From Nemertoderma westbladi (Eukaryota > Animalia > Xenacoelomorpha): DNA of 64,000 nucleotides. The translations under genes and the position numbers were made by a program. The stretch covers positions 4,827-68,826 of the forward strand of contig JAUCBJ010005855.1 in assembly GCA_032718475.1 (NCBI GenBank). The letters are read 5' to 3'. Positions 6,481 through 52,169 of this stretch are shown here, one piece after another; position 1 is the stretch's first letter, and every line of letters starts with the position of its first letter. The notes below the pieces were generated by a model. That model was not told the origin of the DNA and ran no database searches. It saw nothing but the letters and a program-made list of their open reading frames with translations.

Positions 6481-6629
6481 TAACTTATACATTATGGCCT
6501 ACTCTGCACACACAGTATAACTATCAGTTCAATGTAATTCTTTGCCTTACACCTAACAGTTTCCTATTCACCACAATTAGCAACAATAATCGCAAAAAGC
6601 ACTTTTGAGTTTATTTTCTTTCTTTTTAT

Positions 6630-10736: not shown

Positions 10737-11164
10737 TCTGTAGTTATGTTACTAGAATTCCAGGGGTAGTTTTACCGTAATCTACTAAATAGCCATATGT
10801 TAGAATTTTCAAAATGTAGGCCGGTGTTCGGACACTTCCCCCCCGGCCATTTGGTAAGGTCAACGGACCGCTTGTATCCAGATAAGTTGTATCCAATTTT
10901 CCTTTCGTAGCTCAGAAAGTGATCTTTTGCATCCCGATTTTACATTTTATAACCAAGTTTTATCAATGCAATTACATCGTATTGTTTGCTAATCTTTAAA
11001 CAATTAATTATATTAGATGACCTATATGATGAATTATTTCACTATAAGGTAGCATTTGTAGTTTAACTTTAACGTAAAAACTTTCGAAAATCCGACGCAT
11101 TTTGATTAAGTTACAGTAATGTAATATGCCTATTCATATTTGTACACATAAAACCCTTAGGTAC

Positions 11165-11240
11165 TCTCGTGGCGTAGTGGTCAGATGGTTAAGGCGTTGG
11201 TTACATTACATAGGTTACGAGTTCGAATCCCGGTCGGGAA
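11165..11240 (+). promoter_or_regulatory. tRNA-like Pol III internal promoter (A box + B box) inside the LTR
   Basis: TGGCGTAGTGG at 11170-11180, TGGTTAAGGCG, GAGTTCGAATCC at 11219-11230; present in all four LTR copies. Confidence 0.65.
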
Positions 11241-11316
11241 ATTTGTATTTTGGGGCCATTTATTTTCGTTTGGTGCTAATTGGTAGGCCAATGAGAAGCG
11301 TACAACGTAGCGAATG

Positions 11317-11545
11317 ATGAGCCAGGCCAATCATAGGGCATAAATTATCTTATTGCTCAAATGTGAGGCAGTGGAAAATTCTGTTAGGATTCCATGTCCC
11401 AGATTAGTGTAAGGGCCGGATTGCGTTGAACGATGAGCTGGGCCAATCATAGGGCACGAAGCACTTTATTGCTCAAATGTGAAGCTGTGGAAAATTCTGT
11501 TTAGTTTCCATGTGCGATATTTAGTATAAAAGGCCGGTTTGCCTT
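11317..11545 (+). promoter_or_regulatory. LTR U3 ~115-bp duplicated CCAAT module followed by TATA box
   Basis: gatgagc..ggccaatcatagggca... twice; TATAAAA at 11525-11531; only one module in the element 3 LTRs. Confidence 0.6.
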
Positions 11546-14344
11546 CGGTTATCACTCTTACTTACTTCTTAGAACCTAAATCCTTACTCTTGTAAAAATT
11601 AGTTTATTCGGTTTCTTGTTGAAACTTCGTTTGATAATTCCTTTGTAAAACTGTAAATATACTGCAAATTCCTGAACATGTTTTCTTTTGGTCCAACTTT
11701 GGGACAGCCAAACATCAGGAAGATGGCAGCCTAGACCGTTAGGCCGTAAGCAACGCAGGGAAAAGATGTCCACAACACGCTAGCGCCCACATTGGATTGA
11801 CCGCGCACCCCCTTTGCCCCTTCGAAATACTCCACTTGCCATGCAGCGCCCGCTTTGTGAGAAAGGCAAGACTTTGTTCGACGCCCTTGCCCGCCGTAAG
11901 ACCTATAGATCAGGGTAAGCGTGACGCCGTCCTGGACGCCGCAAATTTAGGATCAAATAATTATATTCAGACAGAAACACCCCCCCCCCCCCCCCCCCCC
12001 TTTGTCATGTCCTACGAACCCCTGGGTTAACCTGTACTTCCTACAGGTGCGAACTATTGCCATTCGTCAGTATGCGAGTACATATTAGGTACGGACAGCA
12101 TATGTTCCATAATTTAGTGATTCGTAGCACTGACTGTTTGGTACCGGTTCGCTTTGTAGAACGTACATTAGTACCCCCCCCCCCCCCCCCCCCTGTCTGG
12201 AGTTAGCTATTTGATCAGGCAAGGAGCATTTCTGCTACCGGCACACTGCTTGGCCTAGGGAGGTTTTATTAATATCCTACCGCGCCTTGCCACGTACTGA
12301 TAGGTATTGCTGCTAACTACCGCAGCAACAAAGTTCTAGAATTAAATTAGTATACCAGATCAGCTAACGTACGGTAGCGATTAACCCCTATTTCTTATCT
12401 TACAACCAGAATCTGGTATTAGTGCCGATCCGGGTGTAGTTACTAACACCGTGGTTGCCCATTGGGTTGTGGATAGGAAGGAGAGAGCTTTGACGTCATT
12501 TGTGAGTATAAAGTTCTACAAAACGCGACTAGTTTATTTTAGTAGCTAGCGCATGGTATCATTTCAGTCAGAAAATCACTAAAACCTAGTAAAAGGAAAT
12601 ACACGAAATTGTTTTATTTGTAACACACCCACACACACACGCCCTAAAACATATTGCCCTTAGAGTTCTACTAGCTATAGCGCACTATACATTATTTTAG
12701 GTAGAAATTATCTGTATTTGTAAAATTAGGATCTGATTTAGTTGCGGCAAGAGAGAGTATTTCATTTTCGTTATTAAACTGTTGATTTCTGTCCAGCAGT
12801 ATTGTTACATTTAGGCTTGACCCTTTAGACTGATTTCGTACAGGGGGATCAGTTATCGTTACATTTAGGCACGACCTTTTAGGCTGATTTAGACAGGGGT
12901 AATCAGCATTGTTACACTAGGTCTGTTAACCACCTAGTTCGTATATAAACCATATAAATCACACCGCGGCAAGTTACTGTATTTAGGACTGTCAGTGATA
13001 GTTAGGATTCGCTGCGCGGGGATTGTTTTTCCGTGAGTTTGGTCTGTTACTGTAACTGTACATCTGCCTCACCGGTTAGAGGACAGGTATCCTTTTGTCT
13101 AGTACGTAGGCATTAGACCCGCTCACGTACATAGAATAGATACTAGGCTCTGTTCCTCGCTTTAGTTTAGTAGTCGTTTGTGTATTGTATCTGTTTGTTT
13201 AGATATCCTGGACTGGGATTTGTTGTCAGATACTGTACGAGCCCATATACATTACTAGAGTCTCATAGTAAGATACATCGTTACTAGGATCTGGTAAGCG
13301 GTATACTACTGGACCCTTACAGTAGGAAGTATTTTATTAAATATCTCGACCGAAGGTGCGTGCGCATTTTAGGGTGAGATATATATATAAATATAGTTAG
13401 CTATTGTAAGTAAGAAGTACTATATAAATTAGTGTATAGTATAATTTAGATCTGTTAGCTATTGAAAGTAGGAGATATTTAAAAATTAAGGTTAGTAAAT
13501 TTAGTAATTTAGAACGTCCCCTGCTTCAGTAGGCTCTTAGGGTAGCTAGTACTTTCGTATTTAATATTTGACTAGCTAACAGTTAGTTTGTAGCACTTTG
13601 TTTTACGCTGTGTGTGTGCGGTGTTACTTTCGGTACTTGAAAAGGTACATAGGGTTTAAAGACCAATTTGTATCGGTACCTAGGAAGATTTTTCGTAAGC
13701 GTAGAAGTAAAACTCTCACCTTCGACCTTTTCAGGACTCAAGGACTCATTTCTGGACCGCTTCGAGGATTAGACCGCTTTTCGCAAAGTTTGGGAGACAA
13801 TAAATTCGTCCGCGCCGCCGAAAAACGGAAAGACCCACGTCCGGTTTGTATTTGGGAATTTGTACGACTGGAAGATCAAAGGAACGTAAGTTTTACGACT
13901 CGCGTCGTTCAAACTTAAGAAAGCACAGTAGTACTCAAAATTTGTGGGTTTCACTGTCTATTAGTAGTGTTGTTTGTACTTATTTTCCCGTTAGACGTTG
14001 CTGTTTAGCCTATTATTTGTACTTGTTGATCTATATTTTGTTAACGTATATCGTTATCTCATTTATTCGTACAAATTTAGCCGGTAGGCTAGATTACTAC
14101 TTATTTTATTATATACTTTGTTAGTTTATTTGTACCGGTTAGGATATATATATGATATATATATATATCAAGGTAAGTTTGACATTTGTACATTTCGACA
14201 TTTTGACATTTCGACATTCTGACTTGTTGATTTATTTGTACCGGTTAGGGTATATATATACTATATATACCAAGGTAAGTTTGACACTTCAACATTCAGA
14301 CACTTTGACATTTTATTACCCGTACTTGACGTATATAATAAGAC

Positions 14345-17300
14345 ATGAGTGACACACCCCATTCGACGAGATACCCACCTACCGACTATGACTCGTGCGA
14401 CCCGGACAGATCGACAGTAGACGAACCAAGAAGGAGAACCCGAGATTCCACCGATGTCACACCGCTTGCGTCACCGGTACCCCGAACGGAAATACCGGAA
14501 ACCGCAACGCGTGGCGACGGCAGAATCGAAGATTTCCTTACCGTCCCGCAGACTAGATCACGGGAACCGGACATGGTAAGTTCGACTGGAAGCCAGGAGA
14601 ACGTTATTAGAAGTATAGGAGGACACATGGCCCAGATTACTCGGATCCTCGGAGAAGGTTTTCGCGTTTTACGCGAGTTAACCGCCCCGATGTCGAGATA
14701 TGAGTTCTACACCTTACAGGTAAGGATAGAAAGTAGGGTACATGCCTCCGTAGATAAACTTAAAGGTTTACATGAACTTGCAGAGTTGCGCGGCGACAAC
14801 TTTACTCAGGTAAAGATAGTAGATAAATTAGTAAGTGCGAGAGAAAGCATTATCCAGTTTAAGTCAGTAATAAGATTGGCTCAACAGGAGCAGTTTGACC
14901 AACTGCTAGGTGAGTCAGTTTCGGACGCGTTGTTACAACCCGAAGAGGAAAAAGAACTCTACTGCCTGGACAGAAGGTTGGAAACGCTTACCAATTTTCT
15001 TCGTAGATGTGGCGTACCGATCGACGAACCGGAAGTCGAACCGCGAGGGACGACGGAAGTTCTCACTACGGAAGGCTCGCGAGCCTACCAACATCCACCA
15101 CTGGATAGATCGTTCGTTAGCGTACGGAGCGACGTTGGCAACGTTGGCGACGTTAGTAAAACAGCGTCTGTAATTACTCGACAACAACAGGAGGTTGCAC
15201 GCCGACAACAAGTCGCCGAGGAAGAAGCGCAACACCAGATGGCACAGATCGCCATCGAAGGAGAGAAACAACATAGAGAGGACGAGGCAAGAATTGCGCA
15301 ACTCAAGGCGCAAGCCGAATTCGAAGCTTCGGAAATGCGCAGACTGGAGGAGGACTTAGCGCGAGAAGCGGCGGCAGCAGCCGACGAGTTAGCACGAAAG
15401 AAAGCAGCATCCGACGCTCGTGCCAAGTTGGAGGCGCGACAAATAAACGCTCGATTAGCTATACAGGAAGCGGAGTTAGCGGCACAACAACAAGTAGCGG
15501 ATCGACGCGAAAGGGAGATGCAACTACAGTTCGAATTGAATCGTAGATCGCGCGAGACAGCGAACGCGCAAGCGGACCTCGAACTCGACGCGAGAGATAG
15601 ATCTATAAGATCGCGAACTGGACACGACTTGTCTGCCCTGGATTGTATGGAAGCTCGATATCGCGGAATACAGAAGCAGATCGAGGAAGGAAGTGTGGGA
15701 GCGATAGATCGAGGAGAGGAGTTCGTCGAGGATTACTGTAAACGTTTTCCCCAAGTTATTCCTATGCTCAAACCCACGACTCCGATAAAACCGGTCTTCG
15801 TTACGAAACCTAAGGAAATAACGCCTGTGCGTTCGACGCAAGGCAACAGGTTTGTTGTGACGGAAATACCGCAACCTAGGGCGACTTCATCACCAATTTT
15901 AGCAGGTAACATAACTAGTCCACCTACAGTAAGTCGTAGTCTACTTGTAGGAAGAGAGGAACCTGCGTTTATGACCATTAAACAGGTGAGTAAACCATTA
16001 CAAGTTAAACCTGTGACGTGCTGTGCAAATCCAGTTATTTACAGACCGACTACGAAACCCGACTATTTCACTCGACCGTTGACACAATGTTCGACGCAAC
16101 CTACGACTTCGTGGAAGGCTTGCGAGCCTACCGAACTACGGAGGAGGATGGATGTGGGTAGTACCCACAGGATCGGACAACGTATAGCGAGACCTACGAC
16201 TTCGTGGAAGGCTTGCGAGCCTACCGAACAACGGAGAGCCGTAGATTCCAGACCACAACGGACGAAACCGAGAATAATACGCCGGACACGAACCCGCCAG
16301 CCACCTTATCCGGACGACAGCGACTCATCTAGTGACTCGGAGTCGACGGAACGGGAAATATTCCGTACTGGAGCGGCGGAAGATTACAAACGAGAGGAGA
16401 GGTCGACGAATCCATACATCGACAATCCACCTCGAGAAACACCCCAACAGAAACCCACGTTGAAACCAGCGGAAACGATCAGCGCTAAACAGTTCACCGA
16501 GATGACGGACAGAATAGCTCAACTCGAAGAACGACTCGAAGCGCAACCGTCGGATCGATCTCGAACCAGCGTGGAGTTGGAACAACCTAGACAACATCGA
16601 CCACCGAGGAGAGAACAGGAGACTAGACGGACTCCGACACATCGAGAAGATGATCCCGTTAATAATTCCTACCGACGAACAACGCGCGGAAGGGAGCGAC
16701 TGGACGACGCCGCCGAACAGGGACGCGGACAGTTGGATTTGGTTAGCGAGATTGCGAAATTCGCGGCTAGACACAGATTACCGGCACAGCAACCGCCGAA
16801 GTTCTCTGGCAACGCGAAACACTGGCGCACACTGGTAGACTACGTAGAGTCCCAGATCGCTAAGTGTGCTTTCACCTCGACGGAGAAGTTTAATTACTTG
16901 CTCCAAGTTCTGTCTGGTGAGCCGAAACGATTAGCGGAACCCTTTATTGGAGTTCCCGATGCCTTCGAGTTAGCATACGATTGTTTATATTCGATTTACG
17001 GAGGTAATGTCGCCATGGCTAAATCCATTATTGAAGACCTCTGCAGAGGAGGCAACATTTCGAGACCGATCGACCTTTTACGACTCGCGGACGAAATAAA
17101 GAACGCTATAGGGACTTTACGGTCCATTGGACAACTCGAGTACGCTAACGCACCGACGGTTCTCATTCGAATAATCGGTCGACTTCACCATCGACTACGA
17201 CGAGACTGGCGACGCATCGAGTACCAGCGCGAAGAGGCCGGAGGGTTATTAAAACTCACCGATGTCTATCAACTGATTTCACGGGAGGCCGTGATCGAGA

Positions 17301-17461
17301 CTCGATCGAACTATACCGATCACCATATCGCGGCGGAAGGGATAGCTATTTCTGCGCCGAATCGGACAAAACCGTTTCCGACGAACGCGAAAGCCGTTAC
17401 TTACGCCACCCCTACTGAGACTTCTAAAGTTCTGACGCCTATCGGCACCACGCAGCCATGA
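14345..17461 (+). pseudogene. gag: Gag region of element 1 polyprotein (premature TGA and nearby 2-bp deletion)
   Basis: Coiled-coil region; PPKFSGNAKHW...EKFNYLLQVLSGEP (BEL/Pao gag); sibling reads QPQQQLPADFEGCPYC through this point. Confidence 0.88.
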
Positions 17462-17480
17462 CAACAGTTGCCGGCACTTT

Positions 17481-20348
17481 GTGGGATGCTCATACTGCGA
17501 GCGGAACGGCAGAAACCATAGCGGACATAAACTACGTGGATGTCACGCTTTTAAAGAGTTAGGGATCGAGGAGAGGAGACTCCAAATCCGATCTCTAGAT
17601 TCCTGTTGGAGATGTATGAAGCCAGGACACGTCCGGAAGGATTGCACAAGCGACGATACATGTTCTCTGTGTGGACGTAACCATGACGCGTTGCTTCACA
17701 CAACCAGTCATACTCTGACCAGACGCTTTCGACGAGAGCATCCAGATAAAGCGGCTAGATGCGACGCTCTTTATAAGGAGCGTGCGCCGCGCGAGATCCG
17801 TACCTTTTATACCGACTGTATGGATCAGTCAGGATCATCGGACGAGGACGAGGAGGAAGACAACACTTTCTACGTGCATGCAGGTGAGGAACAGCCATCG
17901 ATAACGCTCCTCACACAGAACCAATTGAAAGGGTTTAGCGTGATTCCCATAAAGATTACCGGAACCCGAGGGAGCAAGCGTATATACGCCATCTTAGACT
18001 CTGCGTCATCGCATAGCTATGTCGACGAACAAGTAGCCGACGTAGTTACGGACATGAGTCAAGGTAAGACTGCTCAGCATACAGTAAGTAGCATGCATGG
18101 TAAGAGAGCGATCCCTGTGACAAGAGTAAAACTAACTTTAGACACTCTTCTTTCCAAAGCGGAACACAGCAAGGAGGAGCGCTCATTACTTCCGGTAAGA
18201 AATTTGACCTTTGCAGCTACGAAGGACTTTAGTAACTTGCTCGGCCCTGTGCCAGAGCAATCACCGGAAGATCGTAAGTGTTTCCGACACCTTGGAATAC
18301 CGGAATGTCCTGTTAATTATCATTCCATTGCGATGTTAATTGGGACAGACCAGTTTAACTTACATCAGGTATGGGAGACACGCCCATCTGTTATTACAGC
18401 GGGCAACCCCTACGCATGTAGAACTCCCATAGGTTGGTATACTAGAGCACCAATACGTTCACTAGAGGTAAGTGACCAGGAGGACGACGTTTTGAGTACG
18501 TGTAGTTTATTGACTAACACGATAGATAATTCTCCTTCACACTCCTGTGGTCCAATTGTACGGACGGCACTACGACAGACTTGCGTCACTAACGCAGACG
18601 CCACCGATACTGACGTAACCGATCTGGACACGACCATACGGACCTCTGACTTACAACTACTTGCAGTAGACCAGGTTGTATTGACTACTGAAGACCAAAG
18701 GGTTGTTGCCGTGGATGACTCGATGAACGAGGATTTTGGAAGGCTTGCGAGCCTACCGAAAAATCCGAAGGTCATTGACCCCACCCACCAGGCTTCGACA
18801 CCGGTCGTTGATCTTGGAAGGCTTGCGAGCCTACCGACAGATCAAAAGGTTGTCAAACCGCCGCACGACGATTCGACGCCGACTAGTGACACCGGAAGGC
18901 TTGCGAGCCTACCAGACACCTTGACACTAGCCACCGCAGCGGACGAAGACGTGGACGAGGACCATGGCGCAGTGCAAGCAGCGCTTGACCGACTGCTGAC
19001 TGAACGGACCATACAATGGTTGGAACAGGACTCAGCAGAACCCGGTAGTTACGAGACCGCTATGTCAGAACAGGAAAAACGGTCATTAAATATTATGAGA
19101 GATACCATTCGCCAGACCGCGAATGGCCACTATGAGGTTGGTATGTTGTGGCGCAATGGACAACCTAAGCTCGTTAACAATTACCCGCTTGCTTTGAGGC
19201 GACTCAAATCAATAAGGCAGCGATTGTTGCGAGACGAGATGGCCCATATGCAATACAATGCACAACTTCAGACGTATCTCCAAAAGGGATACGCCATTAC
19301 GATGTTAAATCCCGAGGTAACCACAGACCAGACATATTACCTGCCACATCATTTTGTTCGACACCCGGACAAACCTGGCAAGGTGCGTGTAGTCAACGAC
19401 TGCGCCGCGCTTTACCAAGGGATGTCTATGAATAGCGAACTGATGGACGGGCCGAATATGAATAATTACCTCATGGGAGTCCTAATGCGTTTTAGACAAC
19501 GCAAAGTGGCTTTCACCTGTGACGTAGAGGCCATGTTTCACCAGGTTAAGGCTTTGGAGCGGGACAGGGACAGTTTGAGGTTTCTTTGGTATCCGGACGG
19601 AAACTTACAACTTCCGCCAGAAACTTACCAAATGCAGGTAAGAGTATTCGGAGCCAGGGACAGCCCCAACTGCACCATGTACGCATTAAAGCAGACAGCA
19701 TTGGACAGACGAGACCAATTTGACCCAGAAGTAGTTCGGACCGTGGAACGAGACTTCTACGTGGATGACGGCCTCAAGAGTTGTGACACCTTGGAGCGCG
19801 CTACAACCGTAGCACACCAACTCCAGGATTGTCTCGATGAGGGCGGATTTCACCTGACGAAGTTCGCTTCCAACGAACCCGAGCTGGTGAACTCATTTGA
19901 CCCGATGGATCGCAGTGGAGGTGACTTGGACTTAGACCTAGAACCTCTGCCGACGACCAAAGTATTAGGACTTAGTTGGGACCCTAACACCGACAATTTT
20001 AGGGTACGTGTAAGGTCCAACGACCAGACTAGACCTCTCACTAAGAGGACTTGCTTATCGACCATGAGTCGATTGTATGACCCATTGTGTTTCATTAGTC
20101 CAGTGATCCTACATGCTAGGATCATACTCCGCAGCATTTGGCAAGCCGGACTGGAATGGGACGATCCCATCCCAGAAAAGTTAGCTGAGCGATGGAGGGA
20201 CTGGGAAGCCCAACTGACGTTCCTACAAGATTATACCATACCGAGGGTATACTTTCCTTTGCAAACCACCTTTCCTGCCGATTTAGAGCTTCACAGCTTT
20301 AGTGACGCTAGCAAGGATGGATTGGGGGTTACTTTATACCTTAGATGA
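17481..20348 (+). pseudogene. pol: Zn knuckles, aspartic protease, RT and start of RNase H of element 1
   Basis: CWRCMKPGHVRKDC, ILDSASSHSYV, YYLPHH, DGPN, DVEAMFHQV, RFLW, VFGARDSP, FYVDD, HSFSDAS. Confidence 0.93.
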
Positions 20349-23189
20349 CAAGTGACATTGGACAGCTACGATGTATCTCTCGTTACTTCAAGGGCTAGAA
20401 CGATGCCATTGAAGTATATGACTGTACCTCGTGGGGAGCTGCAAGCCGGGACGATATCCACCGATATTGTCAGTCTAGTTCAACGCGAGCTGGAGGCTAA
20501 CTTGAAGGTCACATATTGGACGGATGCGACGTTGGTACTTTGGTACATAAACAACGAAACATTTGAGTTCAAGACTTTCGTAGCCAACAGACGGGCTGAA
20601 ATATTAGACCGGTCGCTCAAACAAGATTGGCGTCACTGTCCAGGGAAGCTGAACCCAGCTGACATCGCGTCAAGGGGGATGCAACCGCTTGACTTTTGTA
20701 AACCGGACAATAAATCCTTTTGGTTTAGAGGACCCGATTTCCTACAGCGACCATCAGACGAATGGCCACCGTTATTCGACGCGACAACCAACACCATACC
20801 AGAGGGTGCCGAGATAAAACTCGACAAGGTTGTCAAGTCTAAAGCGAAAGCCAACGCCAAGGTCAAGAGGAAAAAAGGACGGACGAAATCTGATGACCTG
20901 GACGCCAGACCTTACATTACGCCAGACGTCTCGCCAGACACTCGACCAGACGCTTGTACGAATCCTTCGCCGGATGTTCCGCGGGAGATTTCACCAGACG
21001 TTTCGCCGGATTGTTCACCAGATTACTCGCCAGACTATTCACCAGAAGAGACACCAGATTGTTCTCCGGATTGTTCGCCAGATTGTTTGATGGAACTCTC
21101 GACAGAATGTCTACCGGACGTCTCACCAGACTTTCCACCAGACATCTCGACAGACTGTCCACCAGACTTTAGACCAGACTTTGAACCAGACTTTCTGACA
21201 GAAGTTACGCTAGACAGACTTTGGGACCGACGACAGGACATTTTGCCGGATGTTCCGTGCTATGTCTCACCAGACGTCTCACCAGACTGTTCACCAGACG
21301 CTTCACCAGACTGTCTACTAGACACTCCATTAGAAGACCCATTGGAGCGGACTTTTAGAGACTTACCAAATTTGACTTCTTTGGACGACAAAGGTGTGGC
21401 CACAGGGATTACACTCCGCTCGAAGAAGGTACTTGACTTACCTACAGGTAAACGTGTGACTAAGGTTAGGAAGCTTACAGGCTCACAGGAACACACTGAC
21501 ACTGTAGAGTTGAAACCATTACTGCCAGTCGACACATTAGGTGCGGACGGTAAAGGAAAGACCGTAGAGATTGACGTACTTGGGGACTCAGACAAACCTA
21601 CCGGAAGGCCCGTGGGCCTACCAAGTCCAGACAAGTATCCACACTACGACTACACCTTACCCGATGACGTCACCAACACTTACGTTGACAGGATAGTGAA
21701 CCTAACTAGATCATGGACTGACGTGTGCCGCAAGTTAGCATGGCTCAAACGATTGAGACAATATGCCAGAGGCAAACGCGACTTTCCTAGAAGACTTACC
21801 TTAAAGGAAATTGGCCACTGTGAAGTTGATATCATTCGACATTATCAATTGCGATATTTCGCACGAGAGTTCACAGCGATCAAACAAGGTAAACAGATTA
21901 AGTCTTCACCGATTTTGAGTTGGAGTCCGATTATTTACCGGGGCTTACTTTGTCACAAGTCCAGACTCCAAAACATCGACTTTGCACTTGACTTTAGGTA
22001 TCCTATCATCATACCGCAACACCATGAGTTACAGCGCGCTATGATACTGGACGCACATGTACAACTCAAACACGTAGGTAGACACCACTGTCTATCACAC
22101 TTACGCTCGAGGTTTGTACTGATTAGACCTAGTAAGGCACTGAGTTCGGTAACACGGAACTGTATTATTTGTAAGAAGGTGCACGCGAGGATAGGACACC
22201 AAGAAATGAGTGAACTACCACTAGAAAGATTACAGGCGTTTAGACCCCCTTTCACTGAGACAGGGATAGACTGTTTTGGACCCATAATCGCGAAACGCGG
22301 AAGGGTACAGGTAAAACGTTGGGGATTGATCTTCACTTGCATGGCCAGCAGAGCTGTCCATATAGAACGAGTGACAGACTTGACCACCAATGCCTTTATC
22401 CTAGCCTTACGGCGATTTATCGCTAGACGTGGATTGGTCAAATCCATATACTGCGACCAAGGGACAAACTTTGTGGGTGCACGGAACGAAATAACCAGAG
22501 CTTTGAGAAAATTGGACCAAAACCAGATTTCCGAGGAACTACGTCCTCACCGTATTGTTTGGTTTTTCAATACTCCAGACAGTCCGTGGAGAGGCGGCGT
22601 TTGGGAAAGGCTGATTGGCTCAATAAAGACAGCTATGGCTAAAGTCGTACCGACGCAACACATCTTGACAGACGACCAACTGACGACGTTACTAATAGAA
22701 ATCGAAGCAATCTTAAATACTAGACCGATCGCTTTGATCCCAGACAATAACGACGTACAGTTTGCCTTGACACCAGCGCACCTGCTTATGCAGCCGCCGA
22801 CGACATTGTTGCCCATTTCGGTACCCGTTGATAGTGACGGATACGGCAACAAGGCTTGGAAAATCACTCAATTGCTTGCAAATAAATTCTGGGAAATATG
22901 GCAGAAATATTATTTGCCCTCTATTTCGACCAGAACCTCTTGGTATCTAAATACCCGATGTTTAAGACGTGGTGACCATGTTTTATTGGCTGAAGCTAAT
23001 CTGAAAAGACGGTTTTGGTTGACTGGAGTCATTTTGACCACGCACCCTACATCTGGTGTAGTGAGGACAGTTACTGTAAAGACTATCGACGGACGTACCG
23101 TAGATAGGCCTGTACAACGTCTCGTACTCCTTGAGGAGACTAGAAACGAGACGGGAGACTACAAATCTCCACCCAATATTAGTAAATAG
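20349..23189 (+). pseudogene. pol: RNase H and integrase of element 1 (same frame, after in-frame TGA)
   Basis: VPRGELQA, YWTDA, NPADIASRG, H..H..CIIC, GIDCFGP, CDQGTNF, GGVWER. Confidence 0.93.
20905..21360 (+). repeat. 12-bp in-frame coding minisatellite (xSPD/xxPD) between RNase H and integrase
   Basis: ccagac/ccggat about every 12 nt; ISPDVSPDCSPDYSPDYSPE. Confidence 0.85.
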
Positions 23190-23926
23190 ATGTGGGACCT
23201 TAGTTGGCCGCCACATAGACCTACGGTATTTTAGTTATTTGTATTTGTATTACTGTACGTGCATTTGTAATCCTCTTCACTGTAGATAGAGACAGCGGTG
23301 GAATTCCATTGTCTTTATACGTGAACATGGAGGGTAGTACCCTTATGTATCACATAGGAGCGGGATTGTGTGTACAGTAGGAATGGAATTCCACTTGGAA
23401 CCCACAAGTGAGACAATTTTCAAAAATTATTAGACAAATCCATTTGTTTGGATTTAAATTTAAGAAAAGCGATTCTCCAGTGAAAGCAAATTCTAGAATA
23501 CAGCTAGATAAAAATTAAAATTGGGGAGGACAAGAGCGGATGGAAGGCTTGCGAGCCTACCGATAAAATTTTTTTTGGAAAAAGAAAATCGGCCTTGTTC
23601 TACGTAGTCGTGTCTACCATTATTTAGACCAATTAATTCTCAACTGCACTATTTTTCTTGGGAAACGTAGTTTGGGAAATTAAAAGGTGAGTATTTTAGA
23701 CTCGCGGCTAGTTTACCCGGAATTCGTTTTTTATCGGCACATTTTTTGGATTAGGAGCCAGTGCGAAATCACGCGAACCCGAAATCATTAGGCAAAATGG
23801 GTTGGGGTTTAGAGCAGAGTTGAGCCAAAAGCCGACAAACTATAAGTCACCTCACATCTAACCTCTATTTTGTGCTTCATCTAGTAGAAACGTAACGATA
23901 TGTAACCACATATATATTCGTATACG

Positions 23927-26900
23927 ATGGCGGAGAAGATGTATAAAGAGTTACGTCAAGGGTTTACGCAAGAACAAGAGCACCAGCCGCCATTCAATCG
24001 TTATGGAGCTAAAAACTTTAGTGTGTTTGGAGTGGAGAGTATGGCTAGGAGTACGGCCAAGCTCGCTAAATCCAAGGCGGACCCGAATGTTCTGCGACAG
24101 CGGTTGGACGCATACAACAAAAGAACAGAGGAATTACGCGCGGAATTCAATGCGTTATATCCTTACGATGCGTTATGCGACGCTAGCGACATTTGCGAGG
24201 ATCCAGACACCGAAATACGCCGATTGTATCATACGCTGCAATATTTGACGGTAAACGAACCCTTACCTGCAGCTAGAGACGAATTTGAAGGAATGCATCT
24301 TTATAGACGCGCTCGAGGAGCGGATCCAGAGACCAAGGACGCGTTCTCCATATACAAACTGTTTTATAAATGTGGAGCGTGTATGCGCGAGCAAGACAAC
24401 GCGATTCCTATGCGGTTGAACTCGGAGAACCCCGAGCCGATATTAGCGCGATGTTCACACCACCAAAGTCTACGTTACCAAGAAGGCGGATACCCTTTGA
24501 CAAATCCGTATCATTCGTTTAAAATGAGTGGACCGAACGCGGGTGAGATCGTTATTTACGAACCCAAATTAGTCGAACCAGACGTCTACAGCATGGTAGT
24601 GGACAAGTCTAATAAGTCGACACAAGAGAAACGGGAAGCTTTGAGCCTCTACAGGGCGTACAAGGCGTACAAGAAAGGCGAGATCGAGGAGTTCGGCGGA
24701 AGGCTCGCGAGCCTACCATTCTATTGGATATCCCACGATCAAACCGAACCCAAGGAGATGACACCCGAGCTCTTCGATAGTATCACCTTTGCTCAGCGTT
24801 TGTCGCAGAGACTACAGATACCTCATGTCGAGATGACGCGAGAACCTCAGCCCCATTCTACTGGAGCAATAGTACCGGTTGCGAGACCAACTAGTTTTCC
24901 TATTAGTATACCGACCCGGAAGGAGACAATTTACGAGATCCCTATAGTTGAACACCCGGAGATCATCTCGAACCTGGATTTCCTCCCATCGGTTACCTTC
25001 GGTGATGTGTTAGAATCAACCGAGTTGCGTAAAAATAATAGTTCAAAAAATTGTACGCAACGTGCCTCCACATATCACGGACTTTAAGGAAGTGGATCGC
25101 GCGGGGACGGATATCGCACCTTGTATCTTGCGAGGATATCTGACGAAAACGATTTGATTATGGATCGGAGTTGGAACGTTTGAGACCGACACCGATATCG
25201 CGACCAATTGGACCGGTAAACCTATTAGTTTCGATGATGAAAAGTCGATCGGGAGAATTTGGAACCCTACCGACGATTTACTCGACGATTGGGACGTGAC
25301 TAGCCGATCTCTGAAAGAGAATGGTTATATGTTTTACGATAATGAAGGAGGAAGCCATCAGCAAAGCCTCACTTCAAAGACTATACAGATTAGAGCACCA
25401 GATGGCGTGTTACATGTCTTCAGCCGACAGAGGAGTGATAGGAAGATGCCTATGCCGGAAGGAACGACGCAAAGACACGCGATGATAAAACGGATAGTTA
25501 AATCCATGGACCTGGCTTGTAGCATAGAAGCTAGGATGTTGCCAAAGGCCGTGCGAGACGTTGTGTTGGATAAGAGCATCGTCAAGATCGGATCTGGTGT
25601 ACGGGATGACCTCATTAGTGACTTTGCAGGGATGCCCACGGAAGAGGACCGATTGCCTACGCCATACGTGGATACTAGACCATTGTTGCTTTGGGCTATT
25701 GAGCAAGGATATTTTAGGGAGTATAACACGCTAAAAACTGGGACGGGTTATATCTCATATCTAATGTTCAGTTAGGATTACAAGGAGAGTAAGAGGAACA
25801 AATACACGGACGTATACGGAGAGGGAGATACCCCCGGCGTAAACGAGTTCGAGTCACAGTTGAAGTGGCGAGGTTGCGTGTATTGGGCGATTACTTCACC
25901 CCCGCGGATAATCTTGCAATACTATTTAGCGATAGAATCTTCGGTTAACGTTTGTTTCATCGCGGACGTAGTATCCAGAACCCTAAAGCGACACCCGTTA
26001 TGTCTTGGCGAAGGACATACCTTTTACGATGGAGGAAGGACGCATACTGATGTATTCCGACGATTTCTCCAACCCTTTTATAACACCGATGCGCACTGCG
26101 AAGTTTTCACGCGAGCAGGACTTAGCGTTTTCAGGGACGTCTATCTCACTCACGCGGGAAGTCTAGTTGACAGACCGTCGATGTTAACGTTAGTACCCTA
26201 TGACGGGGAATGCCACGTGGAATTCGAACGCCCGGAAGGATCCTGGAAGGCTCGCGAGCCTACCGCCCATCATGACGATGTGGATCCGACCGAGTTGACG
26301 CTAATAGATGAACCGTTACGGCAACTCATAGAAGTAGAGGAGAACCTTCCGAGGAAGACGCGAACTGAGATACGCGAGTTGGAGAAAAGCGATGCCATGG
26401 TTTGTGTACAACCTACGGAGACGAACATACCGACTGACCCAGATGATGAGAATTATCACGTGGACGGTAGCGCTCGCCCCATCGGAGATCTCATCTATGA
26501 GCGAGTTTGGTATCCTGCCAACACTATTTGTGGCAGATGTGGAGCAACTGGCCATCACGCAAAGAAGTGCGGAGCGAAGCACATATCTCTACCGGATTTA
26601 GTATGCAACTGGTGCGGGGATCAACGTTCGCACACTTTCTACACTTGCTGGCGTTTCGTGGCGCAGTGTACTTATTGTAATATTAAGGGCCATAGGGCAT
26701 CCGAATGTCAACTTAGAGACGTCCCCTATGAGCACATGACAGTTAAAATCGTTCGACAATTATTCGACCATTGGGAGGATCTAGCAGACGAGCATGTATC
26801 GACGCAGCGACGCCGCTTCCCTATGAGAGCACATTTGGGATTTTGGGCCGTAAACCCGCTCATAATGTCAAAGGAAGGATATGTATCGGCTATGCCTCAG

Positions 26901-27683
26901 TACGATGAATTGTTGGAGGTATTGGATATATTGCCATTGGATAGTGGATTCAAAGTTGTGCGGGACTATTTCTTACAAGTGCACCCTGACAACAAGAATA
27001 CTTGGAACTTTCAAACTGTGGTGAACAAGATTACCGCCGGAGAATTCGATAAACTGCGAGTTGAACAGCGGAATCGAGGAGCCTGGCATTCGATAGCTTG
27101 GGCATACCGGAGCGCATTTTATCACAAACGCGTAACCTCGTGTATTCTAGACGAGACCGACGTTTTGCGTGAGACTGGCTTCAAGGCCACGCCATTAGCA
27201 GAGAAGACGCGTCACCCACAGGATGATCAGCAATTTCGTATACTCAAAGCCCAGAAGGCCAGACAAGAGATTAAAAAGATAGTAAATGTCGCCGAGAGGA
27301 CGACATCGAAGTCGCAAATCTGGATGACTCGGGGCACGGTTTCCCTTGCTAGAGAACCACGCGGAGGGACAGGATACGCTTTGAATGAACCCATTAGGAT
27401 TCAAACGACGTCAGAGAGCGAGGTGTCAACGGACGGAATGGTCCTACCTTTTTGACTTCCTCCTAGCGTTGTAGAAACTCGATCCGATGTTAAGCCGACA
27501 GTTGGAATCGGACGAGGATTTAGAGGATTGAGCGCACGACGGATGTGCGAAACTCCCGTCGTCCCCTTTCCTAGCGTTTTGGAACCACCGACGACTCGAC
27601 GCCGAAGTCCGAGCCCAGTTCGACCTCGACCACCCCCCAATCGCACTAGAGGACGTGGACGAGCCCGCTCAGCGAAGGAATAG
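23927..27683 (+). pseudogene. Accessory ORF2 of element 1 (~1250 aa reconstructed): Cys/His domain, DEDDy-like 3'-5' exonuclease, three CCHC knuckles
   Basis: Pieces join via a +1 frameshift at ~25033 and stops at 25155, 25773 and 27453; MFYDNEG, LPKAVRDVVLDKSIVKIGSGVRDDL, YVDT; CGRCGATGHHAKKC, CNWCGDQRSHTFYTC, CTYCNIKGHRASEC. Confidence 0.8.
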
Positions 27684-28310
27684 GAAGCGAGTGGAAGGAA
27701 GGCTTGCGAGCCTACCGATTTGGATATTATATTTGGATATTTATTTTGGATATTTATTTGGATATTATATTTGGATATTTATATTGGACATTATGTTTGA
27801 ATGTTGGGTTTGGAGGAGCGAGATATGGAAAGGAAGGCTTGCGAGCCTACCGTTAGCAATTGGTGCTCAGGAGAAGATATCCAGACCAGCAGGACGAACT
27901 ATTTAGATCGTCAGGAGGACATTATTGGAAGTTATTAGCGTATTGTGTTTATTTTATATTTGAACTGATTTAATTTGGTGGAAGTTTATTATGTATATTT
28001 ACAATATATAAAGATTTATCGAAAGAGTTACAATTATTTGTTCGATTTGTTTTGATTTATTTGTTCTGATTTGTTTAATTTGCTTACCTTGATAACCGAA
28101 AGCCTTTTTTGTATTTTAGGCACTAAAGTTGATTAGTAAATTTGTATTTGTATGTACGATCGATTGTATTTACGCCGTATCTGCAATATTAAGTATGCAA
28201 TAATTAGATAGTGATTATATTTTATATTTTAGGCCCTACCAGTAGATTTAGAAGTAGTTTGTAAATATTTTATATTTCGATTGGTGAAAACAGTCTTACT
28301 TACTGTTTTC

Positions 28311-28319: not shown

Positions 28320-29409
28320 TGATGAATTATTTCACTATAAGGTAGCATTTGTAGTTTAACTTTAACGTAAAAACTTTCGAAAATCCGACGCATTTTGATT
28401 AAGTTACAGTAATGTAATATGCCTATTCATATTTGTACACATAAAACCCTTAGGTACTCTCGTGGCGTAGTGGTCAGATGGTTAAGGCGTTGGTTACATT
28501 ACATAGGTTACGAGTTCGAATCCCGGTTGGGAAATTTGTATTTTGGGGCCATTTATTTTCGTTTGGTGCTAATTGGTAGGCCAATGAGAAGCGTACAACG
28601 TAGCGAATGATGAGCCAGGCCAATCATAGGGCATAAATTATCTTATTGCTCAAATGTGAGGCAGTGGAAAATTCTGTTAGGATTCCATGTCCCAGATTAG
28701 TGTAAGGGCCGGATTGCGTTGAACGATGAGCTGGGCCAATCATAGGGCACGAAGCACTTTATTGCTCAAATGTGAAGCTGTGGAAAATTCTGTTTAGTTT
28801 CCATGTGCGATATTTAGTATAAAAGGCCGGTTTGCCTTCGGTTATCACTCTTACTTACTTCTTAGAACCTAAATCCTTACTCTTGTAAAAATTAGTTTAT
28901 TCGGTTTCTTGTTGAAACTTCGTTTGATAATTCCTTTGTAAAACTGTAAATATACTGCAAATTCCTGAACATGTTTTCTTTTGGTCCAACTTTGGGACAG
29001 CCAAACATCAGGAAGATGGCAGCCTAGACCGTTAGGCCGTAAGCAACGCAGGGAAAAGATGTCCACAACACGCTAGCGCCCACATTGGATTGACCGCGCA
29101 CCCCCTTTGCCCCTTCGAAATACTCCACTTGCCATGCAGCGCCCGCTTTGTGAGAAAGGTAAGACTTTGTTCGACGCCCTTGCCCGCCGTAAGACCTATA
29201 GATCAGGGTAAGCGTGACGCCGTCCTGGACGCCGCAAATTTAGGATCAAATAATTATATTCAGACAGAAACACCCCCCCCCCCCCCCCCCCCCCCCCCCC
29301 TTTGTCATGTCCTACGAACCCCTGGGTTAACCTGTACTTCCTACAGGTGCGAACTATTGCCATTCATCAGTACGCGAGTACATATTAGGTACGGACAGCA
29401 TATGTTCCA
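28320..29409 (+). repeat. 3' LTR of element 1
   Basis: Direct repeat of 11027-12109; homology ends at ttcCA. Confidence 0.9.
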
Positions 29410-29568
29410 AACAGTTGCGGTGCAAACAGTGGTGCAGACACTGGTGCAGACAGTGGTGCAGACAGTGGTGCAGATAGTGATGCAGACAGTGGTGCAGACA
29501 GGGGTGCAGACAGTGGTGCAGGCAGTTTGTGTAGACAGTGGTGCAGACAGTGGTGCAAACACTGGTGC
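29410..29568. repeat. 12-bp minisatellite (acagtggtgcag)n
   Basis: ~12 imperfect copies abutting the 3' LTR. Confidence 0.9.
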
Positions 29569-46321: not shown

Positions 46322-46598
46322 TTTGAGATCCTCTACGGTAAGGGCTATCCTATGGCCTACAAATCTACTAGTACGAAGCTATAGAATATCTCTAACCATA
46401 AAGTCCAGTAGTATACCGCTTACCAGATCCTAGTAACGATGTATCTTACCGTAAGATCTAGTAATGAAACGAGCTCGTACAGTATCTGACAACAAATCCC
46501 AGTCCAGGGTATCTAAACAAACAGATACAATACACAAACGACTACTGGCGAGGAGCAGAGCCTAGTGTCTATTCTATGTACGTGAGCGGGTCTAATGT
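46322..46598 (-). repeat. Leader-derived fragment, copy 2 (direct repeat of 45064-45339)
   Basis: tttgagatcctctacggtaagggc...gagcgggtctaatg near-identical. Confidence 0.88.
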
Positions 46599-46605
46599 TC
46601 GTTAA

Positions 46606-48897
46606 AAGTTTGTGTAAACCTTTAAGTTTATCTACGGAGGCATGAACCCTACTTTCTATCCTTACCTGTAAGGTGTAGAACTCGTATCTCAATATCGTGG
46701 CGGTTAACTCGCGTAAAACGCGAAAACCTTCTCCGAGGTTTCGAGTAATCTGGGCCATGTGTCCTCCTATACTTCTAATGACATTTTCTTGGCTTCCCGC
46801 CAAGCTTACCATGTCTGGTTCCTGTGACCTGGTCTGCGGGACTGTAAGGAAATCCTCGATTCTGCCGTCGCCACACATTGCGGCTTCCAGTATTTCCGTT
46901 CGGGGTACCGGCGACGCACGCGGTGTGACATCGGTGGAATCTCGGGTTCTCCTTCTCGGTCCGTCTACTGTCGATCTGTCCGGGTCGCACGAGTCATAGT
47001 CGGTAGGGGGGTATCGAGTCGAATGTGGTGTGTCACTCATGTCTTATTATATACGTCAAGTACGGGTAATAAAATGTCAAAGTATCGGAATGTCGAAATG
47101 TCAAACTTACCTTGGTATATATATAGCATATATATACCCTAACCGGTACAAATAAATCAAAGTCAGAATGTCGAAATGTCAAAATGTCCAAATGTCAAAC
47201 TTACCTTGATATATATATATATCATATATATACCCTAACCGGTACAAATAAAACTAACAAAGTATATAATAAAATATGTAATAATCTAGCCTACCGGCTA
47301 AATTTGTAGAAATAAGTGAGATAACGGTATACGTTACCAAAATGTAGATCAACAAGTACAAATAATAGGCAAAACAGCAACGTCTACGGAAAAATAAGTA
47401 CCAACAACACTAATAATTAGACAGTGACACCCACAAATTTTGAGTACTACTGTGCTTTTAAGTTTGAACGACATGAGTCGTAAAGCTTACGCTCCTTTGA
47501 TCTTCCAGTCGTGCAAATTCCCAAATACAAACCGGACGTGGGTCGTTCGATTTTTTGGCGTTGCGGACGAATTTTGTGTCTCCCAAACTTTGCGAAAAGC
47601 GGTCTAATCTACAAAGCGGTCCAGAAATGAGTTCTTGAGTCCTGAAAAGTCGAAGGTGATAGTTTTACTTCTACTCTACGAAAAATCTTCCTAGGTACCG
47701 ATACAACTTGCTCTTTAAACCCTATGTAACTTTTCAAGTACCGAAAGTAACACCGCACACACACGGAGTAAAACAAATTGCTACAAACTAACTATTAGCT
47801 AGTCAAATATTAAATACGAAACTACTAGCTACCCTAAAGCCTACTGAAGCAGGGGACGTTCTACAAATTACTAATTTTACTAACCTTAAATTGTAAATAT
47901 CTCCTACTTTTACAATAGCTAACAATATATAGTTATATATCTCACTTTTGGGATATATTTACCATTTGCAAATCGCAACTTGCAAATTTAGCAATATATA
48001 TACCTCACTTTTGGGATATATTTACCATTTGCAAATTGCAACCTGCAAATTTAGCAATAAATATACCTAAATACTGTAACTTGCCGCGGTGTGATTTATA
48101 TGGTTTATATACGAGCTAGTGGGTTAACAGACCTAGCGTAACAATACTGATTTTCTGTACAAAATCAGTCTAAAGAGGGTCGTGCCTAATGTAACAATAC
48201 TGCTGCTCAGACAAACAACAGTTTAATAACGAAATAAATACTCCTTCTTGCCGTAACTAAATATCAGATCCTAAATTTACAAATACCAACAGTAAGATAT
48301 ATATATTCTGCCTAAAGTAATCTAAAGTGCGCTATCTAGTAGAACTCTAAGGGTAAATATGTTTTAGGGCATGTGTGTGTGGGTGTGTTACAATAAAACA
48401 ATTTTGGTGTATATCATTTTACTAGGTTTTAGTGATTTTCTGACCAAAATAATACCGTGCGCTAGCTACGAAAATAAGCTAGTCGCGTTTTGTAGAACTT
48501 TATACTTACAAATGCCATCAAAGCTCTCTCCTTCCTATCCACAACTCAACCGGGCAACCATGGTGTTAGTAACTACACCCGTGATCGGCACAAATACCAG
48601 ATTCTGGTTGTAAGATAAGAAATAGGGGTTAATTGCCACCGTACGTTAGCTGATCTGGTATACAAATTTTATTCTAGAACTTTGTTGCCGCGGTGGTTAG
48701 CAGCAATACCTATCAGTACGTGGCAAGGCGCGGTAGGATATTAATAAACCTCCCTAGGCCAAGCGGAGTGCCGGTAGCAGAAATACTCCTTGCCTGATCA
48801 AATAACTAAGGTTCAGACAAGGGGGGGGGGGGGTACTAATGTATATTCTACAAAGCGAACCGGTACCAAACGGTCAGTAGTACGAATCACTAAATTA
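46606..48897 (-). mobile_element. Truncated second unit of element 3 (leader + first ~145 gag codons) downstream of its 3' LTR
   Basis: Near-identical to 58496-60796; ORF 46513-47040 starts MSDTPHSTRYPP. Confidence 0.9.
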
Positions 48898-49881
48898 TGG
48901 AACATATGCTGTCCGTACCTAATATGTACTCACGTACTGACAAACGGCAATAGTTTGTAGCTGTGAGGTATACAGGTTAACCCAGGGATTTGTAATACTG
49001 ATGGGGGGGGGGTGGTTATCTGAATCTAACTATTTGATCCTAAATTTTGCGGCATCACAGAACGGCGTCACGCTTAACCTGATCTATAGGTCTTACGTCG
49101 GGGAAGGGCGTCAAACAAAGTCTTATCTTCCTCGGAAATCGGGCGCTGTATGGCAAGGTGGAGTATTTCAAAGGGCGAAGGGGGTGCGCGGTCTAAGCTA
49201 ATGTGGAAGGTAGCGTGTTGTGGACATATTTTCCCTGCGTTGCTGACGGCCTAACGGTCTAGGCGGCCATCTTCCTAATGCTTGGCTGTCCCAAAGGTGG
49301 ACGTTTAGAAATATACATGTTCAGAAGTTTGCAGTATATTTGCAGTTTAGCAAATGATTATCAAACAGATTTATAACAAAACAAATAAAGTAAGCAAGAT
49401 ACAAGTATGACAACTAAAGTATAACGAGAAGTTATACACAAATGATTAGTGTGTGTCATAAGAGTGAAGTGATAACCGAAGGCAAACCAGCCTTTATATA
49501 CTAAATCTGGGACATAGAATCCGCTAGAACCTTCCAGAGCATTCCATGGCCTCACATTGGAGCAATAAGATGTTCTATGCCCTATGATTGGCCCAACTCA
49601 TCGTGTTCCATGTGTTGTACGCACCTCATTGGTTTATCTAATTATACCAAATGAAAATAAATTGCCCAAAAATGCAAATTTCCCGACTGGGATTCGAACT
49701 CGTAACCTATCTGTAATGCAACCAAAGCCTTAACCATCTGACCACTACACCATGAGAGGGTTTTATGTGTACCAATATGAATAGGCATATTACATTACTG
49801 TAATTTAATCAAAATGCGTCGGATTTTAGAAAGTTTTTACGTTAAACTACAAATGCTATCTTATAGTGAAATAATCCATCA
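48898..49881 (-). repeat. 3' (shared) LTR of element 3
   Basis: TGATG...TTCCA on the minus strand; direct repeat of 60797-61787. Confidence 0.9.
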
Positions 49882-50452
49882 CCGCTCCATGAAAACAGTA
49901 ATTAAGACTGTTTTCACCAATCGAAATATAAACTATTTACAAAATATTTCTAGATCTACTGGTGGGGCCTAAAATATAAAATAATCACTACCTAATTATT
50001 GCATACTTAATATTGCAGGTACGGCGTAAATACAATCCCTCATACATACAAAATACAAATTTACCAATTAACTTTACGTTACTTTACTTTACTTTACTTT
50101 AACTCCTAAAATTAAATTTACCAAATTAAATCAGTATTAAATATAGAATAAACATAATACGATAATATCTTTCAAATAAGTCTTAAAGTGTCCTCCTGAC
50201 GAGCTGAAAAGTTCGTCCTGCTGGTCTGGATATCTTCTCCTGAGCACTAATTTCTAACGGTAGGCTCGCAAGCCTTCCTTCTCTATCTCGCTCCTCCAAA
50301 ACCAACGTCGAATATAAATACCCAAATATAAATATCAAATATAAATATACAATATACAATATAAAAATATCCAATATAACATCAAAATATAATATCCGAA
50401 TATAATATCCAATCGGTAGGCTCGCAAGCCTTCCTTCCTTCATCTCGCTCTC

Positions 50453-52075: not shown

Positions 52076-52169
52076 ATACGCTAGGTCTAGCGTCCAGGTC
52101 ATCAGATTTCGTCCATCCTTGTTTCCTCTTGACCTTGGCGTTGGCTTTCAATTTAGATTTGACAACTGT

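Follow-up and report, generated by a model that had tools for sequence, protein, structure and literature searches.

A family-specific 20-nt repeat with a predicted hairpin fold, dispersed along a BEL/Pao element of Nemertoderma westbladi

A long BEL/Pao element, its second copy and a sister family

The window (the whole 64-kb stretch of DNA that was analysed) contains a BEL/Pao element of approximately 17 kb, whose terminal repeats have a period of 17,293 nt, together with a second copy of the same family and a sister family, both on the opposite strand:

11027–12109, + strand: 5′ terminal direct repeat (LTR, possibly with part of the leader), without the motif described below
12110–14345, + strand: non-coding leader, without the motif, with splice-donor-like sites at 14170 and 14272 (splicing predicted from sequence)
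14342–17461, + strand: gag ORF (DUF1759, Pfam E 5e-9)
17436–20348, + strand: triple Cys-His box, protease (PR), reverse transcriptase (RT, with YVDD) and start of RNase H (RH) (Peptidase_A17, E 1e-26), with an internal stop at the end
20349–23189, + strand: rest of RNase H, an expanded linker, integrase (IN) and DUF5641 (ORF translation and Pfam)
23855–23890, + strand: probable splice acceptor of the extra ORF (putative branch-point, pyrimidine tract and AG)
23906–27455, + strand: extra ORF, designated here ORF3 (ORF2 in the first-pass annotation), in three pieces in this copy, with one frame change and internal stops
28320–29409, + strand: 3′ terminal direct repeat, without the motif
30791–43678, − strand: sister BEL/Pao family, serving as control, which has a homolog of the extra ORF and lacks the motif
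46322–61788, − strand: second family copy, decayed, internally deleted and approximately 90% identical, with eight motifs

The 5′ repeat, of approximately 1.08 kb, is 99% identical to the 3′ repeat, starts with TG and ends with CA; no matching target-site duplication was found flanking the terminal repeats, and no primer binding site was identified. The element has BEL/Pao character in its PR-RT-RH-IN order and in the motifs ILDSAS, LIGTD, YVDD and SDAS and those of the integrase. The ORF at 17436–20348 starts with three Cys-His boxes, the first with a longer spacer, and in this copy a frameshift sets gag apart from them; a triple Cys-His box in Gag is a BEL/Pao trait, according to the available text of PMC554778. 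The nearest loci are 36–44% identical, and BEL/Pao elements are usually of 4.2–10 kb (PMC3118150, in the parts available).

ORF3 contains three Cys-His knuckle-like motifs and a stretch that resembles an exonuclease by eye only. Its zf-CCHC match is weak and below the cut-off (E 0.003), and beyond it there was no Pfam match, to envelope or otherwise. The homolog in the sister element shows 28–35% identity, and database searches retrieved no homologs beyond that family: two matches corresponded to unrelated repeat proteins, and atlas matches for the first ORF3 piece (≤0.81) were unusable. Structure models reached a pLDDT of 36 and 32, and a fold search with the former retrieved nothing at Z 5 or more. 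Likewise, Pfam gave no DEDDy exonuclease match in ORF3, a profile of 32 DEDDy domains scored 0.5 bits (11 of 500 shuffles as high), and hhalign against DEDDy gave P = 0.06, in register with ExoII.

Distribution, polarity and confinement of the motif

A motif scan of the window revealed 12 copies of a hairpin-forming 20-mer in the element, all on the + strand. The sequence GGAAGGCTYGCGAGCCTACC is matched with 0 mismatches by 11 of them, the copy at 21603 having three mismatches, and none of 100 shuffled sequences contained any match. Our rescan returned exactly the 12 coordinates given by the first-pass annotation:

15070–15089, + strand: motif 1 (C9 variant), in gag, codon phase 2
16113–16225, + strand: motifs 2 and 3 (16113, 16206), in gag, phase 1, as parts of a local duplication of 93 nt
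18738–18913, + strand: motifs 4–6 (18738, 18816, 18894), phase 0; the PR-RT linker has three diverged 78-nt units here
21603–21622, + strand: motif 7, in the RH-IN linker, with the T8-A13 pair changed to C-G
23542–23561, + strand: motif 8, in the non-coding stretch that separates pol from the extra ORF
24698 and 26245 (starts), + strand: motifs 9 and 10, inside the extra ORF
27697–27851, + strand: motifs 11 and 12 (27697, 27832), in the 3′ non-coding region

As that annotation had proposed, the motif is read as EGSRAY, WKACEPT/WKAREPT or GRLASLP, using all three codon phases, and the copies at 23542, 27697 and 27832 are non-coding, the other 9 of the 12 lying inside ORFs; the variant at 21603 is translated as GRPVGLP. 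The three reading frames plus the non-coding sites rule out a protein-level cause. A GRLASLL in protein match P0002 sits in a conserved BEL region and was taken as a coincidence. Neither terminal repeat contains a motif, again as described, nor does the long leader.

The 12 copies represent eight independent loci, with local clusters at 16113/16206, 18738/18816/18894 and 27697/27832. The flanks, which had been described as mostly unrelated, are so between independent loci (14.6 and 14.8 of 20 positions differ in the 20-nt flanks, random-like). Between gag and the 3′ end, independent loci recur at intervals of about 1–2.8 kb, more regular than random placement would give (P = 0.007 for the CV and P = 0.04 for the largest gap), while the motif-free leader as a gap by itself is not significant (P = 0.18). 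This even spacing is confounded because the coding copies occupy linker positions, eight of the nine lying outside the blocks that can be aligned with relatives.

The motif had also been claimed to lie always on the sense strand, and this holds for all eight independent loci (P = 0.008) and for the second family copy, overlooked in that annotation, whose eight motifs (50259, 50415, 52029, 54401, 54479, 57031, 57124 and 58186) all follow that copy's sense direction. Fixed polarity would nevertheless also be expected from template switching by the reverse transcriptase. Confinement to the family, which we checked within the 64-kb window, was confirmed: no site lies outside the family (approximately 31 kb), none is inverted, and a search allowing up to 5 mismatches found no further sites in the 64 kb, the 31 kb outside the family included. 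The 20-mer is therefore a family-specific repeated sequence within the window. Ten more distant BEL/Pao loci from metagenomes (1.3–12 kb, several partial) contained no site within 5 mismatches and no other dispersed hairpin, which rules out a general BEL/Pao feature (0/10 with the array); none of them matched ORF3. A known prokaryotic or phage repeat was also rejected, with two single matches in prokaryotic genomes (approximately chance, by estimate) and none in the viral contigs scanned. An overlay of the contig yielded many variant copies, with none internal to the motif among the 40 places listed of 1876, which are too few to judge conservation. A literature search found no such hairpin array, and the word hairpin is absent from the available parts of two BEL/Pao papers (PMC3118150 and PMC3087523).

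Predicted fold and conservation above background

A hairpin was predicted in all 12 of the 40-nt windows around the motif, with a stem of GG/CC, an A·A mismatch and AGGCU/AGCCU, closed by a YGCG loop. In 200-nt contexts, the stem had a probability of at least 0.8 in 8 of 12 sense and 7 of 12 antisense sequences and did not form in three of the sense ones; the fold energy was −7.6 kcal/mol on both strands. Only one pair, at 21603, shows a compensatory change, an amount reached by 261 of 500 shuffles, and 481 of 500 shuffles had as high a covariation score. Position 9 alternates between U and C opposite G12 (12 U-G, 5 C-G, 1 U-A and 1 other in 19 rows), and pairing is kept on the sense strand only. 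Stem extension by the flanks is no greater than in shuffled sequences (combined P = 0.82); extended stems at 18738/18816, compensatory by eye, were discarded, as flank pairing over 11 sites did not exceed that of shuffles. Of the RNA stem-loop proposed in the first-pass annotation, the fold is thus predicted at every copy, but covariation does not exceed shuffles and both strands fold equally; selection on the hairpin itself, rather than on its sequence, is weakly shown. Rfam covariance models gave no match at any motif, with E up to 1. The histone stem-loop was dismissed, since the motif has a shorter stem, a different loop and no Rfam match, and internal polypurine primers were also dismissed, with a purine-rich upstream flank (16–17 of 20) in just 3 of 12 copies.

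Conservation above background, on which the earlier reading had been made to depend, was found in both comparisons. Between copies 1 and 2, the eight shared motifs show four differences versus 13.9 expected from a CpG-aware background (P = 0.002); in raw counts, the rates are 4/160 versus 619/7078 for the background (P = 0.003) and 34/413 for local flanks; orthologous motifs have three times fewer differences than their own flanks. Three of the four changes are at the loop CpG, which fits decay after insertion. Within local clusters no motif position differed (0/80), compared with 108/255 flank positions, in a test anchored on the motif and with a doubtful homology of the 27697/27832 flanks. 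Additionally, one fixed position sets the two half-sites apart in all 20 copies and never flips, and in none of them has the A·A mismatch been corrected. The bases bordering the motif are T/G or C/A (4 + 4 of 8 units, P = 0.029, in a count that leaves out A/G sites and two duplicates). Partial shadows of the motif near the copies were not convincing (lowest P of 0.04 among nine words).

These patterns bear on two alternatives. It is quite improbable that the motif works as double-stranded DNA, with a dimeric protein of the element or the host recognizing the near-palindrome along the integrated copy in a VANC-like anti-silencing system. The motif is family-specific, lies partly in tandem duplications and is spread along the element, its invariant stem bases with non-significant covariation fit sequence readout, and CpG sites differ between copies twice as often as others (159/1122 versus 452/6014), a sign of methylation; motifs of related VANDAL families likewise differ (PMC5735166, available text). 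However, a dimer site sits poorly with half-sites that never flip and with the alteration of both arms together at 21603, and no copy is near the LTR promoter. Moreover, VANC motifs are of 8–9 nt and in non-coding DNA (PMC5735166, available text), whereas the motif is not multiplied in non-coding tandem repeats, with 9 of 12 copies in ORFs.

A selfish or neutral hairpin, multiplying by template switching and kept uniform by conversion between copies without benefit to the element, also appears unlikely, if slightly less so. The sharp edges, random flanks, location in tolerant linkers and absence from sister families agree with it, as does a 6-nt duplication-like repeat at 2 of 11 sites (0.43 expected, P = 0.07). 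Furthermore, copy 2 lost one 78-nt unit by a crossover across the motif, indicating that motifs do recombine, and hairpins elsewhere invade coding genes in a manner thought to be non-adaptive (PMC7813641, in the text available). Against it, differences are three times fewer in orthologous motifs than in flanks, no copy is inverted or outside the family in the window, and conversion of exactly 20 nt that leaves the A·A mismatch in 20 of 20 copies would be hard to obtain.

Candidate roles and comparison with known systems

We consider it fairly probable that the array is a selected signal acting on RNA. The dispersed cis-acting signal proposed earlier is consistent with the confinement, fixed polarity, frame independence, conservation above background and predicted hairpin, but selection on RNA structure is unsupported by covariation. 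To our knowledge, recognition of their own RNA by BEL/Pao elements has been little studied. For the specific role we tentatively favor, from sequence analysis, packaging by the element's own Gag. Copies would have spread through template switching in reverse transcription plus local duplication, settling in linkers where additional residues are tolerated; the triple Cys-His box of Gag would bind the hairpins, and this binding would allow the unusually long RNA (about 17 kb) to be selected and condensed ahead of sister-family RNAs from the same genome. The array could possibly be a private barcode, one exact hairpin along a 17-kb genome, read by the element's own Cys-His protein for family-only packaging or protection, the peptides that it encodes in three frames being tolerated junk. 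Retroviral packaging signals are usually in the leader, and against packaging the leader here lacks a copy, the predicted spliced mRNA of ORF3 would contain four copies, and the sister element, also long, lacks the array.

Somewhat unlikely, although less so than the two alternatives above, is a hairpin acting on all transcripts, bound by the ORF3 protein or a host protein for export, stability, transport or as a silencing shield, in analogy with Rev/RRE, CTE or Egalitarian-type signals. Every sequence and folding result counts equally for it; additionally, all 12 copies are downstream of the predicted splice donors (eight in the predicted intron and four in the ORF3 exon), two are in the 3′ non-coding region, and ORF3 has the weak zf-CCHC match. 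Conversely, the link between ORF3 and the array is weakened because the sister element keeps the homologous ORF without the array, searches with ORF3 gave no identity, and no Rfam family matches the motif.

The motif is sharply bounded and family-specific, convenient for use in binding assays and reporter tests, and the sister family without it provides a built-in negative control at the same locus. If it is a site for Gag or ORF3, retroelements can mark the whole genome, instead of the leader, at a cost to protein linkers, and the pair would be a small new RNA-protein tag; if selfish, it would be a parasite of a parasite, spreading in reverse transcription. Should the barcode be real, this would be the first example of an LTR retroelement with a recognition signal dispersed in multiple copies, and it would parallel the VANC motif system at the RNA level.

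The element shares with BEL/Pao (Belpaoviridae) the triple Cys-His box, PR-RT-RH-IN order, YVDD, DAS, DUF1759, Peptidase_A17 and DUF5641 (traits in the available text of PMC554778), but differs in its approximately 17 kb, long leader, extra ORF without envelope and dispersed hairpin array. The bdelloid elements Juno and Vesta also have a non-envelope ORF after pol, a DEDDy-type ORF3 (PMC5408684, whose available text does not contain the word hairpin), which ours resembles by eye; however, they belong to another LTR lineage, and the resemblance was not significant in any test. In Arabidopsis, the VANC targets of VANDAL transposons are likewise short, family-specific and repeated along an element with a gene for an accessory protein, although of 8–9 nt, in non-coding tandem repeats of a DNA transposon, whereas here a 20-nt hairpin-forming motif lies mostly in the ORFs of a retroelement (PMC5735166, available text). 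Hairpin elements of sponge and placozoan mtDNA are also short, GC-rich, intergenic and coding, and lineage-specific (PMC7813641, available text); here the motif is in a nuclear retroelement, with fixed polarity, a fixed mismatch and conservation above background. Packaging through dispersed signals is established for RNA viruses, and in the available text of PMC6281560 those of MS2, the HBV pregenome and picornaviruses are many small stem-loops that share a recognition motif genome-wide; their affinities vary, and what they have in common is a recognition feature, not a stretch of 20 near-identical bases. In the element described here, near-identical copies are carried as extra linker residues, with a putative binding by Gag.

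Occurrence and conservation of the hairpin motif

The first-pass annotation described a 20-nt hairpin-forming motif at 12 plus-strand positions in copy 1, a BEL/Pao element with terminal repeats at 11027..12109 and 28320..29409; all 12 positions are correct, 11 being exact and that at 21603 having three mismatches, with no match in shuffled sequences. Eight further motifs are carried by copy 2 (46322..61788, minus strand), which belongs to the same family, and motif polarity is that of the element sense strand in all 20 cases. Scanning the 64-kb window, about 31 kb of which lies outside the family, at up to five mismatches revealed no motif beyond these 20, and the suspected confinement to one family and strand holds within the window at this threshold.

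The motifs of copy 1 correspond to eight independent loci, three of which are local clusters (16113/16206, 18738/18816/18894, and 27697/27832). Flanks, annotated as mostly unrelated, differ at around 15 of 20 positions between independent loci, and the edges of conservation are abrupt at motif positions 1 and 20. The nine coding copies occur in phases 0, 1, and 2, in agreement with the reported reading in three registers, and three copies are non-coding; eight of the nine (five of six independent loci) fall outside blocks alignable with relatives, which comprise 2054 of 4112 residues. Motif spacing is more regular than random (P = 0.007 and 0.04), a result confounded by linker positions, and the absence of motifs over the initial 3.3 kb does not reach significance (P = 0.18).

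The motif sequence is clearly conserved. Copies 1 and 2 show four differences in eight motifs, where 13.9 are expected from the CpG and non-CpG background between copies (P = 0.002), bearing out conservation above background; three of these changes are in the loop CpG, and the local flanks differ at 34 of 413 positions. Within the local clusters, differences amount to 0/80 in the motifs and 108/255 in the flanks, in a motif-anchored test; for one of its four pairs, homology of the flanks is doubtful. A constraint on the protein was ruled out as the cause of conservation, because the motif is read in three frames and at non-coding sites. From the two copies in this window, the array is real, non-random, family-specific, and conserved.

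The host element and its extra ORF

By its sequence features, copy 1 is classed as a BEL/Pao retrotransposon. It has Pfam matches to DUF1759, Peptidase_A17, and DUF5641, with Integrase_H2C2 below cut-off, as well as a triple Cys-His box, protease, YVDD, and DAS motifs, listed as BEL/Pao features in excerpts of PMC554778. A distance of 17,293 nt separates its terminal repeats, more than the 4.2-10 kb usual for BEL/Pao elements according to excerpts of PMC3118150. No matching pair was seen when a target-site duplication was sought, and the element is disrupted: a frameshift separates the capsid region from the knuckles, RNase H contains a stop, and the extra ORF has breaks. Copy 2, about 90% identical, is decayed and internally deleted; many variant family copies are present in four public runs.

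Downstream of the 3′ LTR both copies run on into leader sequence (46322-61788; 28320-29409), which suggests head-to-tail tandem copies with a common LTR; in copy 2, 3.7 kb recur with a period of 11.9 kb, reaching into gag. The LTR contains, by eye, a tRNA-like stretch (11160-11245 and 28453-28538), and ARAGORN called no tRNA gene in the window; the LTR also holds a 116-nt duplication (11312-11545). A poly-C/poly-G inverted tract (62341-62458) draws weak miRNA-type Rfam hits. Around 35 degenerate 12-nt units (20897-21347) encode an xxPD tetrapeptide repeat that enlarges the RNase H-integrase linker. An unrelated insert in copy 2 (52166-53658) includes five 95-nt repeats, each with a CCC-TTCG/TTTG-GGG hairpin, without match in Rfam.

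The extra ORF (ORF3) shows Cys-His knuckles, which give a weak Pfam match, and, by eye, a DEDDy-like stretch that reached significance in none of the tests made. No structure model was usable for fold assignment, and none of the libraries searched yielded homologues outside the window. Within it, the sister BEL/Pao family matches all three ORF3 pieces at 28-35% identity. Two distant families (23906-27455, plus strand; 30791-35670, minus strand) have in common a large non-envelope extra ORF, which in both carries three knuckle-like motifs and, on visual inspection, a stretch resembling DEDDy; it may be an undescribed accessory gene. The following sites suggest that the ORF of copy 1 is likely expressed from a predicted env-style spliced mRNA:

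14170 and 14272, plus strand: donor-like sites a short way upstream of where gag starts, within a 102-nt duplication
23855-23890 (near 23888), plus strand: acceptor-like site preceding the extra ORF

A form in runs X3 and X4 that skips 3063 nt of this ORF (24489-27553), retaining both 3′ motifs, is an internally deleted derivative.

Distribution beyond the family

The sister family (about 30.8-43.7 kb, minus strand; RT 43% identical) contains no copy of the motif and no other dispersed repeat; its element has decayed, and the 5′ part of gag is missing. The motif is likewise absent from 10 of 10 metagenome BEL/Pao loci (36-44% identity) and from viral contigs, and has two isolated matches in prokaryotic genomes. 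Since the sister family and the metagenome loci lack the array, on these sequence comparisons it is specific to a lineage, and ORF3 can occur without it. Two insertions interrupt the sister element: a small element bounded by 74-nt inverted ends and an opposite-strand LINE-like RT fragment, RVT_1 (33241-33736, 39141-40550). Satellite arrays occur at 5852-6573 (19-nt units), 7753-8531 (68-nt), and 29407-29587 (12-nt, adjoining the 3′ end of copy 1).

Structure, origin, and candidate roles

The hairpin (-7.6 kcal/mol alone) is the predicted fold in all twelve 40-nt windows; in 200-nt contexts its probability is at least 0.8 in 8 of 12 and it is not formed in three. Structure is favored by the 21603 variant, which changes a T-A pair to C-G, and by U/C alternation opposite G at motif position 9. 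The outer bases, T/G or C/A (P = 0.029, 8 units), also favor it, although shared descent is an alternative cause. Against structure, the stem is not lengthened by the flanks overall (P = 0.82); no Rfam family matches the motif. The proposed cis-acting RNA stem-loop is therefore supported by the predicted fold and the conserved family-specific sequence, but not by covariation across copies, which did not exceed shuffles, and the antisense strand also folds (at least 0.8 in 7 of 12 contexts). That the conserved motif acts as an RNA hairpin is plausible from these models, and a putative VANC-like DNA site is distinctly unlikely.

Most likely, the motif would have spread via template switching in reverse transcription plus local duplication, both of which preserve polarity and fit the fixed orientation. 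One 78-nt unit is lost in copy 2, with a crossover spanning the motif, and duplication-like flanks occur at 2 of 11 sites (P = 0.07); that the motif is just a selfish hairpin is unlikely.

On genomic RNA, the motifs would constitute a repeated Gag-binding packaging signal, a candidate role that we favor tentatively in view of the unusual length of this RNA, its even coverage by the sites, and the presence of sister families in the same genome. Against it, the leader (12110..14345) has no motif copy, the sister family does without the array, and four copies would sit in the predicted spliced mRNA; a putative site for ORF3 or a host factor, present on every transcript, is possible though doubtful.

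As the first-pass annotation had supposed, full-text searches outside Repbase, Dfam, and subscription journals, at the level of listings and abstract openings, showed no dispersed hairpin array in BEL/Pao or other LTR elements. The systems compared, from excerpts of each source, comprise bdelloid LTR elements with a DEDDy ORF3 (PMC5408684), VANC motifs (PMC5735166), mitochondrial hairpin repeats (PMC7813641), and dispersed packaging signals (PMC6281560), together with PMC6338049 and PMC3087523.
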